Source of the DNA: a plasmid | Direction: 5' to 3' (one strand) | DNA: 64,000 nucleotides | NCBI RefSeq assembly: GCF_053078305.1 | Contig: NZ_CP166875.1 | Shown here: positions 1,479 through 64,000 of the stretch, piece by piece | How positions within the stretch are numbered: the first letter of the stretch is position 1 | How the letters are laid out: every line of letters begins with the position of its first letter | Notes under the pieces: generated by a model | What the model was told of the DNA's origin: nothing | Databases searched by the model: none | The model's input: the letters and a program-made list of their open reading frames with translations, nothing else | Made by a program: the position numbers and the translations under genes

Positions 1479-2107
1479 GATGCCGGGGGCTGATTGCCCT
1501 GCTGGTATGGGGGCAGAGTGTGGCTGCAGCTGATCTTGGCACCTGGGGGGATTTGTGGCCGGTAAAGGAGGCGGACATGCTGACGGTGATTATGCAGCGT
1601 CTGACAGCTCTGGAGCAGTCCGGAGAGATGGGCCGGAAAATGGATGCGTTTAAGGAGCGGGTGATCCGCAACAGCCTGCGGCCCCCTGCCGTGCCCGGTA
1701 TCGGTCGGACGGAGAAATACAGCAGCCGCCTGTTTGACCCGTCTGTCAGACTGGCTGCGGATATCCGGGATAACGAAGGTCGTATCTTCGCCCGCCAGGG
1801 GGAGGTGATGAACCCGCTGCAGTATGTGCCTTTTAACCAGACACTGTATTTCATCAACGGTGATGATCCTGAGCAGATTGAATGGATGAAGCGCCAGACG
1901 CCTCCCACACTGGAGAGCAAAATTATCCTGGTGCAGGGCAGTATCCCGGAGATGCAGAAGGCTCTGGACAGTCGTGTTTACTTTGATCAGAACGGCGTGA
2001 TCTGCCAGCGTCTCGGCATTGATCAGGTGCCGGCACGGGTGAGTGCTGTCAGTGGCGATCGTTTCCTGAAGGTGGAGTTTATTCCGGTCGGGGAGGGAGG
2101 GAAATGA
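1475..2107 (+). CDS. traW: TraW pilus assembly protein
   Basis: 210 aa with signal peptide; size and synteny match F TraW. Confidence 0.85.
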   Translation: MRCRGLIALLVWGQSVAAADLGTWGDLWPVKEADMLTVIMQRLTALEQSGEMGRKMDAFKERVIRNSLRPPAVPGIGRTEKYSSRLFDPSVRLAADIRDNEGRIFARQGEVMNPLQYVPFNQTLYFINGDDPEQIEWMKRQTPPTLESKIILVQGSIPEMQKALDSRVYFDQNGVICQRLGIDQVPARVSAVSGDRFLKVEFIPVGEGGK

Positions 2108-3096
2108 AACGGTGTATGTGGTTGTGTGTGGTTTTGCTGCTGACTGGCCATGTTCCCGCAGCCTCAGCGGACGCTGCCTGTGAAGGGCGGTTTGTTAACC
2201 CGATCACGGATATCTGCTGGAACTGCATTTTTCCACTGTCGCTGGGCAGCACAAAAGTGAGTCAGGGGAAGGTGCCGGATACAATAAACCCGTCAATGCC
2301 GATCCAGTTCTGTCCTGCGCCACCGCCTGTATTTAAACGTATCGGGCTGGCTATTGGTTACTGGGAGCCGATGGCACTGACGGATGTGACCCGCAGTCCG
2401 GGATGTATGGTAAATCTTGGAATAACAATCCCGGAGCTGGGGAAAACCGGGCAGGGAACGGCCAAAAAAGACGACAAGCAGGTGAACGGGGCATTTTACC
2501 ATGTTCACTGGTACAAATACCCGCTGACATACTGGCTGAGTATTATCACCTCAGCAGGATGTCTGATGGGCGGCGATATGGATATCGGGTACATCTCAGA
2601 AATTGACCCTACCTGGACAGACAGCAGTCTGACCACCATTCTCAACCCGGAAGCGGTCATCTTTGCAAATCCGATAGCACAGGGAGCCTGTGCGGTGGAT
2701 GCCATTGCCAGTGCCTTTAACAAGCCGCTGGATATCCTGTTCTGGTGTGCCGGTTCGCAGGGCAGTATGTATCCGTTTAATGGCTGGGTGAGCAATGAAT
2801 CCAGTCCGTTGCAGTCATCCCTGCTGGTCAGTGAACGGATGGCGTTTAAGCTCCACCGTCAGGGAATGATAATGAACAGCATCGGCGTGGATGTGGCTGT
2901 CTGTTATGAATATCCGTCGCCCATACTTCCCAAAGAGCGCTGGCGTTATCAGATGGTGAATATGTACCCGGACAGCGGACAGTGCCATCCGTTCGGACGC
3001 AGTGTGATGCGCTGGGAGACGGGAAAAAATCCGCCCAACACAAAGAAAAACTTCGGTTACCTGATGTGGCGTAAACGTAACTGTGTGTTCCTGTAA
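2104..3096 (+). CDS. traU: TraU
   Basis: 330 aa, signal peptide, Cys-rich; size and synteny match F TraU. Confidence 0.9.
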   Translation: MKRCMWLCVVLLLTGHVPAASADAACEGRFVNPITDICWNCIFPLSLGSTKVSQGKVPDTINPSMPIQFCPAPPPVFKRIGLAIGYWEPMALTDVTRSPGCMVNLGITIPELGKTGQGTAKKDDKQVNGAFYHVHWYKYPLTYWLSIITSAGCLMGGDMDIGYISEIDPTWTDSSLTTILNPEAVIFANPIAQGACAVDAIASAFNKPLDILFWCAGSQGSMYPFNGWVSNESSPLQSSLLVSERMAFKLHRQGMIMNSIGVDVAVCYEYPSPILPKERWRYQMVNMYPDSGQCHPFGRSVMRWETGKNPPNTKKNFGYLMWRKRNCVFL

Positions 3097-3109
3097 TCGG
3101 GAAAATGTG

Positions 3110-3652
3110 ATGCGCAACAGTAAAGTGCAACTTGTATCAATCCTCAGACAGGTCAGTCTTTCACTGAACACGGAGCCATTACGACAGTTTATCTCTCTGA
3201 GGGAGATTGCAGAAGAGACGGATCACGTCGCTGCTCGTTTGTCCGGAGGAAAACGGGTAACACCTGCACAAATTTATGAATTGTGTGCACAGTTATGGAT
3301 GGCCAGGATGAAGGCAGTTGAAGTTTATGGGCGACATTCTGATGTGGTGATGTCTCTGGAAAGACAGACTGATTTACTTGAGGCTGCAGGCAACGTATTA
3401 AAACAACGCTGGTTTTACCGTCCGTGGGGATCATCAAAAGCATCTGTGATGCTGACAGGTATACTGGTGATCCCCGTATTTCTGGTTTTATCCGGATTGT
3501 TGAGTGCAGGGTATCCCGGGTTATTATGTATTACCGTATCCGGCTGTTATTTTTCCGGGATTGCCGCTTTTTCTTTGCGGGCTAAAGATCCAGTCGGGCT
3601 TTGCTGGTCTGTGTTCTGTTTTATTCTGCTATATCTGCTCCTGAAAAAATGA
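3110..3652 (+). CDS. hypothetical protein with soluble N-domain and C-terminal hydrophobic helices (non-F cargo)
   Basis: ORF 3083..3652, probable ATG at 3110; AT-rich codon usage unlike flanking tra genes; no family recognised. Confidence 0.35.
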   Translation: MRNSKVQLVSILRQVSLSLNTEPLRQFISLREIAEETDHVAARLSGGKRVTPAQIYELCAQLWMARMKAVEVYGRHSDVVMSLERQTDLLEAAGNVLKQRWFYRPWGSSKASVMLTGILVIPVFLVLSGLLSAGYPGLLCITVSGCYFSGIAAFSLRAKDPVGLCWSVFCFILLYLLLKK

Positions 3653-3654
3653 GA

Positions 3655-4446
3655 TTAATTATTCTGCGTCTGAATAATGAATGCTCCGCCATTGCGATGT
3701 ACTCTGAATCCATTGGGATGCCTCCTGCAGGAGAACAGTCTGTAGCGGGTTTTTCCCCCATACCTCAGATTCAGGACAATAGTTTCACAGAGTGGCGTCT
3801 TCCTTGCCTTTTCTTTATATAGTATACCTTTTTTTTTCAGGTTATTAGCTATTCTGTTTCGGATTCCGTGGCGCAGGATGTGAGACTGTAATGTGATCGT
3901 GTTATAAGACGGATAGCATAATATGAAATGTTCAATATTTCCGACAAGCTTGTCTGCGTTGATTCTTGAGGATACTTTGACAGATGGTCTGGTAATATAT
4001 TGTGGATGTATATCGATTCTCAGGCTGGATATAAAGGGGGTAAGATAAAGACCCGTAACAGGCGTTCTGAGCATGGACGATGAGAAAAAGAACAGAAAAA
4101 ACCATAGTGTAATTACAGATATCCCTGACCTGATAATTACAGAGTATATGTTTCCGCTGAAAGGTGAATAATCTTTTTGTATCATCAGATGTATGATGGA
4201 TGACAGTAAAAACAAAATAAAGCCAGCCGGGAATGGTCTTCTCAGAACTCTGAAAAAGAGACTGTTATTTATGAAGCGAAAACGAAGCAGGACCGTTAAC
4301 AACAGCGATAAGAATATCAGTATTATGACCATTTGCACTCCGAAACTGATACATGAACAGATGTTTAAGGGTGATATTAAATGAGTGAAGGGACAAGAGT
4401 AAATGATTTTGCTTATGTCAAACAGGCCCTTTTGGCGGTGTTTCAT
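3655..4446 (-). CDS. hypothetical polytopic membrane protein (may instead be antisense shadow of + strand genes)
   Basis: 263-aa ORF uninterrupted in AT-rich DNA; F/L/I-rich; overlaps small + strand ORF 4193..4384. Confidence 0.3.
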   Translation of the reverse strand: MKHRQKGLFDISKIIYSCPFTHLISPLNICSCISFGVQMVIILIFLSLLLTVLLRFRFINNSLFFRVLRRPFPAGFILFLLSSIIHLMIQKDYSPFSGNIYSVIIRSGISVITLWFFLFFFSSSMLRTPVTGLYLTPFISSLRIDIHPQYITRPSVKVSSRINADKLVGNIEHFILCYPSYNTITLQSHILRHGIRNRIANNLKKKGILYKEKARKTPLCETIVLNLRYGGKTRYRLFSCRRHPNGFRVHRNGGAFIIQTQNN

Positions 4447-4827
4447 CGGATGAATACCCGGCCGCTCACCAGGCTATGTGAAAAAGATGATATTCAGCGT
4501 GGAATTGCAGATATTCAATGGATGTTACATCATCACTATTATCCATCACCCGGACAGGTTTGTTTTATAATATTTTTATTGCGGGATGAGAAGTTCCGGG
4601 TAGTGCGGGAAGATGGGCGTCAGTCATTCCTTGCAGTTGAAATTCAGTCGTTAATTGATGTTCTGAAAGATATACGGAAATACCTGCAGTTTGTGACACG
4701 GTATGACTGTGATGGTTGTATTATCAGGCTGCATGCCAGTGCTGAACGTAAATACCTGTGGATTTTCCTTGAGTGTGTAATTGTGTTTATTTTGTGTGCT
4801 GTGCTGTTTTTTCTGATTATCTGTTAA
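4381..4827 (+). CDS. hypothetical protein with C-terminal TM anchor (non-F cargo)
   Basis: 148 aa; start overlaps stop of upstream 63-aa ORF (ATGA), suggesting translational coupling; no family recognised. Confidence 0.4.
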   Translation: MSEGTRVNDFAYVKQALLAVFHRMNTRPLTRLCEKDDIQRGIADIQWMLHHHYYPSPGQVCFIIFLLRDEKFRVVREDGRQSFLAVEIQSLIDVLKDIRKYLQFVTRYDCDGCIIRLHASAERKYLWIFLECVIVFILCAVLFFLIIC

Positions 4828-4835
4828 AAACACCT

Positions 4836-5015
4836 GGTGGTGAACATGTACCCGGACAGCGGACAGCGGACAGCGGACAGCGGACAGCGGACAGCGGACA
4901 GTGCCATCCGTTCGGGCGCAGTGTGATGCGCCGGGAGACGGAAAAAAATCCGCCTGACACAAAGAAAAACTTCGGTTACCTGATGTGGCGTAAACGTAAC
5001 TGTGTATTTCTGTAA
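4836..5015. repeat. direct duplication of the traU 3' end (copy of ~2953..3096) carrying an expanded heptamer tract
   Basis: Near-identical to traU 3' end including the TraU C-terminal codons and stop; read directly from sequence. Confidence 0.85.
4854..4888. repeat. tandem heptanucleotide GGACAGC x5 plus one degenerate unit
   Basis: Native traU copy at 2970..2983 has one perfect plus one degenerate unit; duplicate has five perfect units. Confidence 0.9.
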
Positions 5016-5041
5016 CTTAAACAAAAAGAGGAATATTTTAA

Positions 5042-5374
5042 ATGGAAAAGAAATTAAGCAGTAAATACATTCATATTTATATGAGTATATCCTGTGTGTT
5101 CATTCGTTTGACAGGCAAAGCATTAAAATTGTTTCCTTTTGCACTGGTGATGCTATTCACGGTGTTGTTTTATTTTATGCCTGAAAATGTTATCTGTGAC
5201 ATTATCAGTGAATGGCAGAGAAGTGATGTGTCAGACAGGATCAGAGTTATCAGACTATATCTGGGAACAACTTTTTTATGCACCTGGGCGGCTGTTTTTT
5301 TGGAGTTTCTCTGCTCTGATGAGTTTCTGCCGGGAAAGAGATTAAACAAAAATGAAGAAGAGAATAACGGGTAA
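5042..5374 (+). CDS. hypothetical small membrane protein (non-F cargo)
   Basis: 110-aa ORF, hydrophobic segments, AT-rich. Confidence 0.3.
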   Translation: MEKKLSSKYIHIYMSISCVFIRLTGKALKLFPFALVMLFTVLFYFMPENVICDIISEWQRSDVSDRIRVIRLYLGTTFLCTWAAVFLEFLCSDEFLPGKRLNKNEEENNG

Positions 5375-5602
5375 TATCTGACTCATTTTATGTGCATCGG
5401 TCAGAAATGAATTAATGATTTAACAGAGTGAATATCCGGTATCGTTTATCTAATTGCTGCCAGTCTCAGAAAAAAGATAAATGGAGAAAGAAGTTAATCA
5501 ACGATCTTCGTTGTGTTTAACATGGCGTCAGTTATCTCCAGGCTTGCTCTATTGAGCACCTCATTATGACGATTAATTACTGTCTGTTTGCAGGAGAATT
5601 AT

Positions 5603-6241
5603 ATGAACAAAAAAATATACATTTTATTCGCCCTGACAGCAGGATTGTTTCTTTCTGCCCATGCTTCGGAAAATGTGAATACGCCCGAAAATCGCCAGTT
5701 CCTGAAGCAGCAGGAAACACTGAGTCAGCAGTTGCGTGAAAAGCCGGACACACAACTGCAGGCATGGGCAGAACAGCAGGTCAGGGCGAATCCCCTTCAG
5801 CATGCCGATAACCAGTTTCTCGATGAACTGGTCCGTAAACAGCAGGCTGCTCAGAAAGACAAACCACAGCAGGGGGCCGTGTATTTTGTGTCGTTCTCCA
5901 TTCCCGAAGAGGGACTGAAACGGATGCTGGGAGAAACCAGGCACTACGGCATTCCGGCCACACTGCGGGGTATGGTGAACAATGACCTGAAGACTACCGC
6001 TGAAGCCGTGTTGTCCCTGGTAAAAGATGGCGCGACCGATGGTGTTCAGATTGACCCGACGTTGTTTTCACAGTACGGCATCCGCAGCGTGCCGGCCCTG
6101 GTGGTGTTCTGCAGCCAGGGGCACGACATCATCCGGGGAAATCTGCGCGTCAGGCAGGCGCTGGAAAAAGTGGCCGCCACGGGAGACTGCCGGCAGGTGG
6201 CTCAGGGACTGCTGGACGGCACCGGGGATAAGCTGCAATGA
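5603..6241 (+). CDS. trbC: TrbC
   Basis: ATG at 5603 preceded by aggag; 212 aa with signal peptide; size and synteny match F TrbC. Confidence 0.85.
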   Translation: MNKKIYILFALTAGLFLSAHASENVNTPENRQFLKQQETLSQQLREKPDTQLQAWAEQQVRANPLQHADNQFLDELVRKQQAAQKDKPQQGAVYFVSFSIPEEGLKRMLGETRHYGIPATLRGMVNNDLKTTAEAVLSLVKDGATDGVQIDPTLFSQYGIRSVPALVVFCSQGHDIIRGNLRVRQALEKVAATGDCRQVAQGLLDGTGDKLQ

Positions 6242-6699: not shown

Positions 6700-8616
6700 A
6701 TGGATCAGGTTATGAAAGAAAAGATAAATACCTTTTTCAGGTCTCTGAATGTTAATGACTCCGGAAGACCGCGCAATATTTGTGCAATTGTTTTTTTCCT
6801 GAGCTTTTCTGTATTTGCCGACAGCAACAGTGATTACCGGGCAGGTTCCGATTTTGCCCGTCAGATCCAGGGGCAGGGTATTGGCAGTATTCAGAGTTTT
6901 AATCCGCAGGAGAGTATCCCCGGGTATAACGCGAACCCGGATGAGACGCAGTATTACGGTGGGGTGACTGCCGGCGGGGATGGCGGTCTGAAAAATAACG
7001 GCACCACACAATGGGCAACCAGTGAAACCGGCAAAACCATCACAGAGTCATTCATGAACAAGCCGAAAGACATTCTGTCACCGGATGCGCCGTTTATTCA
7101 GACCGGCAGGGATGTGGTGAACCGGGCTGACAGTATCGTGGGAAATACCGGACAGCAGTGCAGTGCGCAGCAGATAAACCGCAGTGAATTCACAAACTAT
7201 ACCTGTGAACGTGACACGATGGTGGAGGAATATTGTTCCAGGACAGCCAGGATCACAGGAGACTGGAAATACACGGATGAATATCGTGAGGTGACGATAC
7301 CGCACTCACAGTTCCGGTTCAGTATGAACGGTCTGAAACTGGTGTTCAGCGTTACCGTACCTGTTGCCGGGACAGTGGAAAGTGCCTCGCTGTCGGCTCA
7401 TGCAGGGCTATATTTCCTTAACTCCCGTTACGACTTTATGAACACAGCCTTTAATGTGCAACTGGTTACAGGACAGAGCGGGACTTTCACCATACCTGTG
7501 CCCTCCGGGTTTTCTGTCACACAGGGGCAGGTTCTGACCGGTAGTGGCTGTACTGCAAACGGTAATTGCCTCCCGCACGGGAATGGTGACAGGATGGTCT
7601 ATGAATCGCTTGTCAGTGGTGCTTCCACCTTTACGCTGAAACTCAGGATGAAGGTCCGTGATAAGGAATGGGTTCCACGGGTGGAGTGGGTGGAGAGTTG
7701 TCCGTTTAATAAAGCGGATGGCGTGCTGAAAGGCACTGAGTGTTCAGAGCCGGGTGGTACGAAAACGGGTGTGATGGAAGGTAAAACCTGGAGCATCACA
7801 CAGGCGTGCTGGGCATACCGGGATAAATATGTCACACAGTCCGCAGATAACGGCACCTGTCAGAAATATGTCGATAATCCGGCCTGTACGCTGGCCTCAC
7901 GTCAGTGCGCGTTTTATTCCGATGAGGGAGCTTGTCTGCATGAGTATGCCACGTACTCCTGCGAGTCCAGAACGTCCGGAAAAGTGATGGTCTGTGGTGG
8001 TGATGTCTTCTGCCTTGACGGTGAATGCGACAAGGCGCAGAGCGGAAAAAGCAGTGATTTTGGTGAGGCAGTATCACAGCTGGCTGCGCTTGCCGCCGCA
8101 GGTAAGGATGTTGCCGCCCTGAATGGTGTGGATGTCAGGGCTTTCACGGGCGAGGCGAAATTCTGCCGTAAGGCCGCAGCCGGCTTCAGTAACTGCTGTA
8201 AGGATGGTGGCTGGGGTCAGGATGTGGGTTTGGCGAAGTGCAACAGCGAAGAAAAGGCGCTGGGAAAGGCAAAGGACAACAAACTGACGGTGAGTGTGGG
8301 CGAGTTCTGCTCCCGGAAAGTGCTGGGTGTCTGTCTGCAGAAAAAGCGCAGTTACTGCCAGTTTGATTCGAAGCTGGCGCAGATAGTCCAGCAGCAGGGG
8401 CGTAACGGGCAGTTGCGTATCGGGTTTGGCAGCGCAAAAAGTCCTGACTGCCGGGGAATAACCGTGGATGAACTGCAGCGTATTAAGTTCGACCAGCTGG
8501 ACTTCACTAACTTCTACGAAGACCTGATGAATAACCAGAAAATCCCGGATAATGGTGCGCTGACCGAAAAAGTGAAAGAGCAGATTGCCGGTCAGCTGAA
8601 ACAGGTGGGGCAGTAA
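6700..8616 (+). CDS. traN: TraN mating pair stabilisation protein
   Basis: Large Cys-rich protein with signal peptide; matches remembered TraN motifs; a later in-frame start at 6712 is possible. Confidence 0.9.
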   Translation: MDQVMKEKINTFFRSLNVNDSGRPRNICAIVFFLSFSVFADSNSDYRAGSDFARQIQGQGIGSIQSFNPQESIPGYNANPDETQYYGGVTAGGDGGLKNNGTTQWATSETGKTITESFMNKPKDILSPDAPFIQTGRDVVNRADSIVGNTGQQCSAQQINRSEFTNYTCERDTMVEEYCSRTARITGDWKYTDEYREVTIPHSQFRFSMNGLKLVFSVTVPVAGTVESASLSAHAGLYFLNSRYDFMNTAFNVQLVTGQSGTFTIPVPSGFSVTQGQVLTGSGCTANGNCLPHGNGDRMVYESLVSGASTFTLKLRMKVRDKEWVPRVEWVESCPFNKADGVLKGTECSEPGGTKTGVMEGKTWSITQACWAYRDKYVTQSADNGTCQKYVDNPACTLASRQCAFYSDEGACLHEYATYSCESRTSGKVMVCGGDVFCLDGECDKAQSGKSSDFGEAVSQLAALAAAGKDVAALNGVDVRAFTGEAKFCRKAAAGFSNCCKDGGWGQDVGLAKCNSEEKALGKAKDNKLTVSVGEFCSRKVLGVCLQKKRSYCQFDSKLAQIVQQQGRNGQLRIGFGSAKSPDCRGITVDELQRIKFDQLDFTNFYEDLMNNQKIPDNGALTEKVKEQIAGQLKQVGQ

Positions 8617-18603: not shown

Positions 18604-20802
18604 ATGAGTTTTAACGCAAAGGATATGACCCAGGGCGGTCAGATTGCGTCCATGCGTATCCGCATGTTCAGCCAGATCGCCAATATCATGCTTTACTGCC
18701 TGTTTATTTTTTTCTGGATCCTCGTTGGTCTGGTTTTATGGGTAAAAATAAGCTGGCAGACGTTTGTGAACGGCTGTATTTACTGGTGGTGCACCACGCT
18801 GGAAGGCATGCGGGATTTAATCAGGTCCCAGCCGGTCTATGAGATCCAGTATTACGGCAAAACCTTCCGGATGAACGCGGCTCAGGTACTGCATGATAAA
18901 TACATGATCTGGTGCGGTGAGCAGCTATGGTCTGCATTCGTTCTGGCGTCTGTCGTGGCCCTGGTTATCTGCCTGATCACCTTCTTTGTTGTCTCCTGGA
19001 TTCTGGGGCGTCAGGGTAAACAGCAGAGTGAAAATGAAGTCACAGGTGGTCGTCAGCTGACTGACAATCCGAAAGAGGTTGCCAGGATGCTGAAAAAAGA
19101 CGGCAAGGACTCCGATATCCGGATTGGCGATCTGCCGATTATCCGGGATTCTGAAATCCAGAATTTCTGTCTGCACGGCACGGTCGGGGCCGGTAAGTCG
19201 GAAGTTATCCGTCGTCTGGCCAACTACGCCCGTCAGCGCGGTGATATGGTGGTGATTTATGACCGATCAGGGGAATTTGTTAAAAGTTACTATGACCCGT
19301 CCATCGATAATATCCTGAATCCGCTGGATGCCCGCTGTGCCGCCTGGGATTTGTGGAAGGAGTGCCTGACACAGCCGGATTTTGATAATACGGCAAATAC
19401 CCTGATCCCGATGGGCACAAAAGAAGACCCGTTCTGGCAGGGCTCAGGACGCACCATTTTTGCGGAAGCGGCGTACCTGATGCGTAATGACCCCAACCGC
19501 AGCTACAGCAAACTGGTGGATACACTACTCTCCATCAAAATTGAAAAACTGCGTACCTTCCTGCGTAACTCACCGGCGGCCAACCTGGTGGAAGAGAAAA
19601 TCGAGAAAACGGCGATTTCCATCCGTGCTGTGCTGACCAACTACGTGAAAGCCATCCGTTACCTGCAGGGGATTGAGCATAATGGTGAGTCCTTCACCAT
19701 CCGTGACTGGATGCGGGGTGTCCGTGAAGATAAGAAAAACGGCTGGCTGTTTATTTCGTCGAATGCCGACACCCATGCTTCCCTGAAACCGGTGATCTCC
19801 ATGTGGCTGTCCATCGCCATTCGTGGCCTGATGGCGATGGGGGAGAACCGTAACCGTCGTGTGTGGTTCTTCTGTGATGAGTTACCCACGTTACACAAAC
19901 TGCCGGACCTGGTGGAGATCCTGCCGGAAGCCCGTAAGTTCGGTGGCTGTTATGTGTTCGGTATCCAGTCCTATGCCCAGCTGGAAGATATCTACGGTGA
20001 GAAATCGGCAGCCTCGCTGTTTGACGTCATGAACACCCGTGCCTTTTTCCGTTCCCCCAGCCATAAGATTGCAGAGTTCGCTGCCGGTGAAATTGGTGAG
20101 AAAGAGCACCTGAAAGCCAGCGAGCAGTATTCCTACGGTGCTGATCCGGTACGTGACGGGGTATCGACCGGTAAGGATATGGAGCGCCAGACGCTGGTCA
20201 GTTATTCCGACATTCAGTCTCTGCCGGATCTGACCTGTTATGTCACCCTGCCCGGACCGTATCCGGCAGTAAAACTCTCCCTGAAATATCAGGCACGACC
20301 GAAGGTTGCTCCGGAGTTTATTCCGCGTGACATCAATCCTGAAATGGAGAACCGTCTGAGTGCCGTACTTGCCGCAAGGGAAGCAGAAGGTCGTCAGATG
20401 GCCAGCCTCTTCGAACCGGATGTCCCGGAGGTTGTTTCCGGAGAAGACGTGACTCAGGCTGAACAGCCGCAACAGCCGCAACAGCCGCAACAGCCGCAAC
20501 AGCCGCAACAGCCGCAACAGCCGGTGTCTCCTGCCATCAACGATAAGAAGTCAGATGCAGGTGTGAATGTTCCGGCAGGGGGGATCGAGCAGGAGCTGAA
20601 AATGAAACCGGAAGAAGAGATGGAACAGCAACTGCCACCCGGGATCAGTGAATCCGGTGAAGTGGTGGATATGGCCGTTTATGAGGCATGGCAACGGGAG
20701 CAGAATCCGGATATCCAGCAGCAGATGCAGCGCCGTGAAGAGGTGAATATCAACGTGCACCGGGAGCGCGGGGAGGATGTTGAGCCGGGAGATGATTTCT
20801 GA
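18604..20802 (+). CDS. traD: TraD type IV coupling protein
   Basis: 732 aa, N-terminal TM helices, Walker [10 protein letters not shown]-terminal QQP repeats; N-terminus matches remembered F TraD. Confidence 0.92.
20464..20523. repeat. tandem 9-bp repeat (CAGCCGCAA-type, ~6 units) encoding the PQQ repeat of the TraD C-terminal tail
   Basis: Read directly from sequence. Confidence 0.9.
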
Positions 20803-63239: not shown

Positions 63240-64000
63240 GATGTTTGACCGTCTTATATCACTGGCGCTGACAACACGACAGAGTTATCAGGCATGGTGT
63301 CAATCAGTTCACAATTTTTCCATCGGAGCAGCCTACCACCGGTGATAACCTGACTTTGCCTGTAGTTTGTATACACAATCCCTGGCATTGAAACACGCAT
63401 ATGAGGTGTACTTCGGAATATGACCGTGCGCTCAGGAAGTACGGCAGATTCCGTCAAAAATTACCTGTAAAGACAGACTTCAGAAAAAACAGTGCTCGCC
63501 GCAGACCGGTGACCGGGCGAAGCCCGCGAACCGGCGAGGAAGCGCAATATATCTGTAGTTACAATGAGCAGGTACGCCCTGAAGCCTTCATAATCGGTAG
63601 TGTATGTTGTTTTTCTGGAATGATTTATCCACATATCTGGAGGTCCGATCCAGTAAACAGATCCATGAATGATCAACAAAGGATCCATTAAAGATCCCCA
63701 TATCGCTGCAAACCTTGTCACTCATGGGCCGGGACCACGATCACATAAGCTGTGGCATGTTACTGATAAACTGTAACATGCTAATGATAAGCTGTATTCA
63801 GTAATCCATATACTGAAGTAAGTTAATGACATAAACTATGGTCAGTACGTCAGACTCAGTTGTTAAATACAGGCTGCAGGTTTTTATTCAGTCAGTTAGC
63901 GGAGTTCTGACACACGATTTTCTGTTTATTCTTTTACTGTCCACAGGCTGGAGGCTTTCTGGAAAACGAAAATTCAGACATCAAAAAACTGTTCGGCGAG

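Follow-up and report, generated by a model that had tools for sequence, protein, structure and literature searches.

Slipped-strand variation of tandem repeats is well known in bacteria, and the repeats concerned include 7-bp units upstream of the hmw adhesin genes of Haemophilus influenzae. As a general rule, the instability of a repeat grows with its number of units. The locus described here carries a perfect array of heptamers within the tra operon of an F-type conjugative plasmid (MPF_F, MOBF), a portion of which makes up the window (the whole stretch of 64,000 nt that was analysed). The array lies in a second, incomplete copy of the end of traU.

A closely similar relic is the RefSeq pseudogene C6N23_RS26160 (NZ_CP027343.1), which occupies the same locus with ~99% identity and also stands behind a 148-aa gene. 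Unlike the window, its allele has two units, and its annotation is silent on the repeat and its polymorphism. A limited literature search returned nothing on the traU remnant or its heptamer repeat. The relic is therefore already in RefSeq as a pseudogene, and the polymorphism of the repeat and the reconstruction of the junction are undescribed as far as this limited search shows. With a probability of roughly 85%, we read the array as a hypermutable simple-sequence repeat within a defunct 3′ piece of traU, which remained as a scar when recombination installed a gene module behind traU.

Results

The second traU end and its heptamer array

The genes of the region run in the order traW, traU, about 2.5 kb of AT-rich DNA, trbC, and traN (6700-8616); the features between traU and trbC are listed in Table 1. 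Homology to the end of traU appears a second time in the AT-rich DNA, from about 4836-4838 to a TAA at 5013-5015. This remnant is a 53% GC island of 178 nt, of which 35 nt are extra units and the other 143 nt the tail proper. On the 3′ side of the array, it differs from the native tail by 7 substitutions in 129 nt, and the two tails form direct repeats of ~130-143 nt with ~95% identity. In sister plasmids, RefSeq/PGAP labels the corresponding copies "TraU family protein; incomplete; missing N-terminus", a pseudogene, and RefSeq adds "frameshifted" to those alleles whose unit number breaks the frame. Variation in unit number thus explains the PGAP "frameshifted" flags on some pseudogene alleles.

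Tandem Repeats Finder (TRF) reports the array in the remnant with a period of 7, 7.0 copies, 100% matches, and a score of 98. Its perfect, head-to-tail short units are those of a simple-sequence repeat, and 49 bases of perfect period-7 repetition cannot have arisen by chance in 64 kb. Direct reading in the GGACAGC register gives six GGACAGC units followed by one GGACAGT in the remnant, and one GGACAGC plus GGACAGT in native traU. The remnant has thus gained five units (+35 nt) relative to the native gene, and the frame is shifted. The original prediction placed the array correctly; its count of five units versus one gives way to these figures.

Table 1. Coordinates of features in and around the traU relic (positions in the window; "." means that no strand applies)
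Position	Strand	Feature	Basis or remark
2104..3096	+	Native full-length traU, 330 aa	ORF list; WP_000817328.1 = traU in sister plasmids
2954..3096	+	Native traU tail, left copy of 143-nt direct repeat	Alignments
2969..2982	+	Seed CGGACAG x2 within native traU, codons ...Y P D S G Q C...	
3097..4835	.	AT-rich accessory module	Collinear with L024 3698-5435; absent from L012, L022
3110..3652	+	ORF180, hypothetical, hydrophobic C-terminal end	WP_001365589.1 in relatives
3655..4332	-	Cargo gene, ~225 aa, antisense to tra operon	Counterpart L024 4269-4943 (-)
4381..4827	+	ORF148, 3′-truncated form of 193-aa gene; stop at junction	Residues 1-145 align to P0006 1-145
4773..5015	+	80-aa ORF, GTG start, mechanical; not regarded as a gene	ORF list
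4836..5015	+	traU 3′ remnant, pseudogene: last ~47 codons and stop; right copy of direct repeat	Alignments, PGAP, Pfam
4853..4901	+	VNTR CGGACAG x7, perfect	TRF; 2-8 units in relatives
4942..4948	+	A7 tract in remnant, length-variable or deleted in relatives	Alignment
5042..5374	+	orf110; next gene after native traU in cargo-less plasmids with this type of backbone	
5603..6241	+	trbC, resumption of conserved tra backbone	

The sole other perfect array of at least six copies in the window is a 9-mer in the 732-aa ORF 18604-20802, which we take to be traD. This repeat (AACAGCCGC, 6.9 copies at 20462-20523) encodes an alternating Q/P run near the C-terminus; since it is in frame, it is probably length-polymorphic without frameshift. 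Near the end of the window (63647-63796), imperfect tandem repeats of 11 bp (GATCCATAAAA-like) and 21 bp (ATAAGCTGTAACATGCTAATG, 2.5 copies) could be replicon iterons.

Unit number among related plasmids

When 3000-5700 was compared with PLSDB by megablast, eight plasmids matched 80% or more of the query within a single location (98-99% identity), and further plasmids matched a part of it. Among complete E. coli genomes, 25 records cover at least 80% of a 4600-5100 query. Units were counted in 22 fetched loci. Over 19 related remnants, the perfect array ranges from 2 to 8 units. Two units are present in five E. coli plasmids (L003-L006 and L009) and in Salmonella L017, three in L010 and L018, four in L014, five in L002, L007, L008, and L019, six in L001, seven in the window and L013, and eight in Salmonella L016. 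The native traU of the fetched loci has two units in every perfect array. Where the seed is imperfect (CGGACAGCGGGCAG or CTGACAGCGCGCAG in L015, L020, and L021), no expansion is seen.

Over 1200 nt of left flank, 1-4 substitutions separate the window from the E. coli plasmids with 2-7 units, except for L018, in which IS600 breaks the flank. Whole-unit changes in copy number are therefore found among close relatives. When 241 million metagenome records were scanned for the exact pattern of at least three units behind GGTGAAYATGTACC, a single contig matched, with six units in its remnant and two in its native copy. The original prediction had called the heptamers prone to slippage and had suggested a comparison of copy number across related plasmids; whole-unit variants of 2, 3, 4, 5, 6, 7, or 8 units among near-identical flanks, together with the metagenome contig, bear it out. 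Judged from the comparison of assemblies, many of which are related to one another, the array is a genuine and rapidly changing tandem repeat. The commonest state of the remnant is still two units, so the array does not appear to be extremely unstable at low copy number, in keeping with the rule that instability grows with the number of units.

Reading frame of the relic

The heptamer is not a multiple of three, and its copy number differs among near-identical plasmids. Such a repeat could in principle form a contingency locus, in which the unit number switches the frame of a small protein or read-through of the relic and thereby gates orf110 by translational coupling. In its explicit form, this plasmid-borne phase switch would let ribosomes that re-initiate after ORF148 at the ATG at 4846 traverse the relic only at certain unit numbers. 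An SD-like GGTGGTGA precedes this ATG, and given that element, some translation of the relic from it might conceivably occur. Furthermore, the stop codon of the relic lies 26 nt before the ATG of orf110, which is the spacing of native traU in the cargo-less plasmid L012.

The state of the frame in the relatives makes such a locus improbable. When 20 remnants were translated from the ATG that matches TraU Met-286, the TraU stop was reached in frame by only 7 of them. The expanded alleles are split about equally among the three frame classes, and compensation of other frameshifts by the unit number was not found over the 20 remnants. Independent frameshifts have accumulated in the tail, with a 1-nt insertion in L002 and a 5-nt deletion in L018. 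Other plasmids have A6 at the site of the A7 tract, a second tract prone to slippage, and L018 has lost part of it. The Salmonella remnants have ATA in place of the ATG. Moreover, the gene downstream of the remnant differs between backbones, and PGAP treats the relic as a pseudogene. Thus, what characterizes a phase-variable contingency gene, namely an intact conserved ORF or promoter with both states maintained, is not seen in the remnant, and the switch described above is an improbable reading on our estimate. If it were true, slippage would stochastically tune the accessory genes behind the relic.

The same counts bear on the 80-aa ORF, which the original prediction had described as a chimeric ORF ending in the exact TraU C-terminal residues after a repeated QRTADSG stretch. 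The ORF is present, and QRTADSG occurs twice in it. Its tail is, by BLASTP, identical to TraU residues 290-330 at 38 of 41 positions, with the final 18 residues identical, so "exact" does not hold for the tail as a whole. Against the Pfam TraU profile (PF06834), it matches positions 266-304 of 306 only (E=1.1e-7), far from a full-length TraU (~306-position profile, ~330-aa protein). The ORF overlaps ORF148 in another frame. Since only 7 of the 20 remnants keep the TraU frame, the chimeric ORF is a mechanical by-product of the present unit number, tied to the +35 nt that join the ORF148-overlapping stretch to the TraU frame. As a real product it finds no backing in the decayed tail or in the pseudogene call of PGAP.

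In L013 (NZ_AP042555.1), an element of the IS110 family ("RNA-guided transposase") occupies 3344-4670, inside the traU remnant. The insertion is just 5′ of the poly-A tract, at a position equivalent to ~4943 of the window.

The junction and its counterparts without cargo

In the cargo-less L012, the DNA that begins at 5016 in the window (an ORF, then trbC) follows directly behind native traU. In L022, also cargo-less, the DNA next to the end of native traU is the alternative type, the one that L007 and L009-L010 have behind the remnant. The plasmid L024, which has a divergent F-like tra region, shows the order traU, ORF180, a 224-aa minus-strand gene, ORF193, ORF96, and trbC; it thus carries the same module with the full 193-aa gene and no traU remnant. 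By blastn, window 2900-4815 is collinear with L024 3501-5435 at 70% identity, and the match ends ~20 nt before the remnant. The ~20 nt of the junction (4816-4835) match neither parent. P0006 (193 aa) is 60% identical to ORF148 over residues 1-145 and has 48 extra hydrophobic residues. As these alignments show, the last gene of the module breaks off at codon ~145-148, and its truncated end is fused to a second traU tail from codon ~284 onward. Since L024 is collinear with the module, lacks the remnant, and has the full ORF193, the module is, on this comparison, native to another F-like lineage, between traU and trbC.

The relatives therefore include the module elsewhere without the duplication, a junction that truncates a gene, and the recipient-type arrangement without the module, as a recombination scar implies. 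The claim that the duplication marks the recombination junction that delivered the cargo is upheld by these plasmids. Alignment of all tails adds a further detail. The E. coli remnants have common 5′ substitutions (G, C, TG) irrespective of backbone, and the last ~15 nt of the remnant and the DNA behind its stop agree with the cargo-less plasmid that has the corresponding type of backbone. Such a combination is expected if the module and the 5′ part of the remnant move by crossover within the tail.

The two traU tails could also be viewed as the attL and attR of an element that integrates site-specifically at the 3′ end of traU and supplies a substitute for it, and the geometry is indeed like that of 3′-end islands, with the target gene intact and a displaced 3′ copy at the far end. 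Such an origin is very improbable, and we rejected it: there is no integrase or recombinase, the module proteins being without a significant match in Pfam, NCBIfam, or PADLOC, nor any gene of recombinase size in the ORF map. Instead of a short identical core, the repeat has 143 nt of ~95% identity, and its end coincides exactly with the stop codon. Furthermore, a module gene is truncated at the junction, and in L024 the module is native without repeats.

At 4833-4840, exactly on the junction of cargo and remnant, lies CCTGGTGG, which has one mismatch to the Chi octamer (GCTGGTGG). It is absent from the Salmonella copies, and the near-Chi match may be coincidence. In L020 (NZ_JBRERP010000002.1), a partial trbC pseudogene that lacks its C-terminus (4097-4186) is found upstream of the intact trbC. 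This pseudogene flanks further inserted ORFs and resembles the same kind of gene-end scar elsewhere in the tra operon.

The accessory module

The GC content of the module is 36-47%, compared with 50-57% for the tra genes. The module proteins, orf110, and a 126-aa ORF have no significant match in Pfam, NCBIfam, or PADLOC. For ORF180, NCBIfam and PADLOC gave no match, and the single Pfam match (DUF6320, E=0.054) is sub-threshold. ORF180 and the full-length ORF193 have a common layout, a soluble part of ~120 aa followed by hydrophobic segments with a "SAGY" motif; the similarity of ORF180 to P0006 is weak (BLASTP E=0.023), and the two may be distant paralogues inside the module.

The minus-strand gene is 63% identical in amino acids over 202 residues to the gene called in L024, with DNA identity of ~70%, and the C-terminal end of the protein hardly varies (KTPLCE.IVLNLRYGGKTRYRLFSC..HPNGFRVHRNGGAFIIQ). 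It has no Pfam match, and it is absent from the annotations of related E. coli plasmids, including several full RefSeq tables. An Rfam search of 2900-5700 (E<=1) gave a single match, CRISPR-DR22 at 4790-4831 (-), which is sub-threshold (E=0.2; 22 bits, gathering score 50) and was taken as chance. A scan for promoters and terminators gave counts that are not above those of shuffled sequence. Among the relatives, the module is disrupted by insertions of an IS3-family element in L006 (2126-3339) and of IS600 in L018 (946-2102), and L015 is without most of the AT-rich middle, including the region of the minus-strand gene.

Discussion

We favour a reading of the array as neutral variation, produced by slipped-strand mispairing within the scar of a recombination. 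We propose that a donor segment carrying traU and the module entered the recipient through a single homologous crossover, either within traU or upstream of it, together with a single illegitimate join, the latter being a non-homologous break within ORF193 that was joined onto codon ~284 of the resident traU. The incoming traU would have kept the operon functional, and the old 143-nt tail of the recipient would have been stranded. Later, the stranded tail would serve as a right-hand homology arm, with its 5′ part travelling along with the module. RecA-dependent recombination between the two tails should, in turn, delete the module and restore a cargo-less traU. The observed patterns would follow from an insertion that duplicated the tail and likewise from recombination of the two tails that removed the module, and plasmids of the L012 type may be ancestors or revertants that have lost the module. 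No parental pair at near-identity was found. The persistence of the relic as a portable homology arm, by which the module can pass from one F-like tra operon to another, is better supported than a phase switch.

In native traU, CGGACAGCGGACAG would constitute the two-unit seed. The genes listed as essential to the synthesis and function of the F pilus include traU (PMC5102898). A change by one unit in this essential gene would be a frameshift and would be purged, which fits the invariant two units. In the stranded copy, which is under no frame constraint, slipped-strand mispairing during replication would add or remove whole units, giving 2 to 8 units and 7 in the window. The 80-aa ORF would then be an accident of the current unit number.

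The original prediction had named an assembly artefact as the outcome that would undo it; none of the complete E. coli genomes searched has exactly this 7-unit allele together with the same downstream DNA (best match, six units), yet an artefact of assembly or sequencing is hardly credible, since whole-unit alleles from 2 to 8 recur in numerous complete assemblies that different laboratories produced independently, as well as in a metagenome contig, a second plasmid (L013) likewise has seven units, and the 49-nt array is below any current read length.

The array could serve as a fast-changing and easily PCR-typed marker that splits near-identical IncF plasmids, many of which come from Shiga-toxin-producing and bovine E. 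coli. Furthermore, the relic, L024, and the cargo-less plasmids together provide a worked example of how accessory modules can become part of the essential F tra operon while leaving it intact. The relic also exemplifies how a stranded gene end can carry a module between backbones. The array reveals no new gene or mechanism. The case adds one more instance to two well-known phenomena, the slippage of simple-sequence repeats in DNA free of constraint and the gene-end scars that mosaic recombination leaves in F-like tra operons.

Like the slippage VNTRs of bacteria, such as those of hmw, the array has perfect head-to-tail units and gains or loses whole units in near-identical sequences. Unlike them, it lies in a non-functional fragment of a plasmid gene, with no visibly controlled gene or promoter and no conservation of frame. 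The junction, in turn, resembles homology-facilitated illegitimate recombination between F-like tra operons in having one boundary in a conserved essential gene. As in the scars of mosaic exchange, the other boundary is a non-homologous, gene-truncating join, and the stranded fragment is a homology arm. In contrast to those cases of mosaic exchange, the mechanism proposed here comes from comparative anatomy alone.
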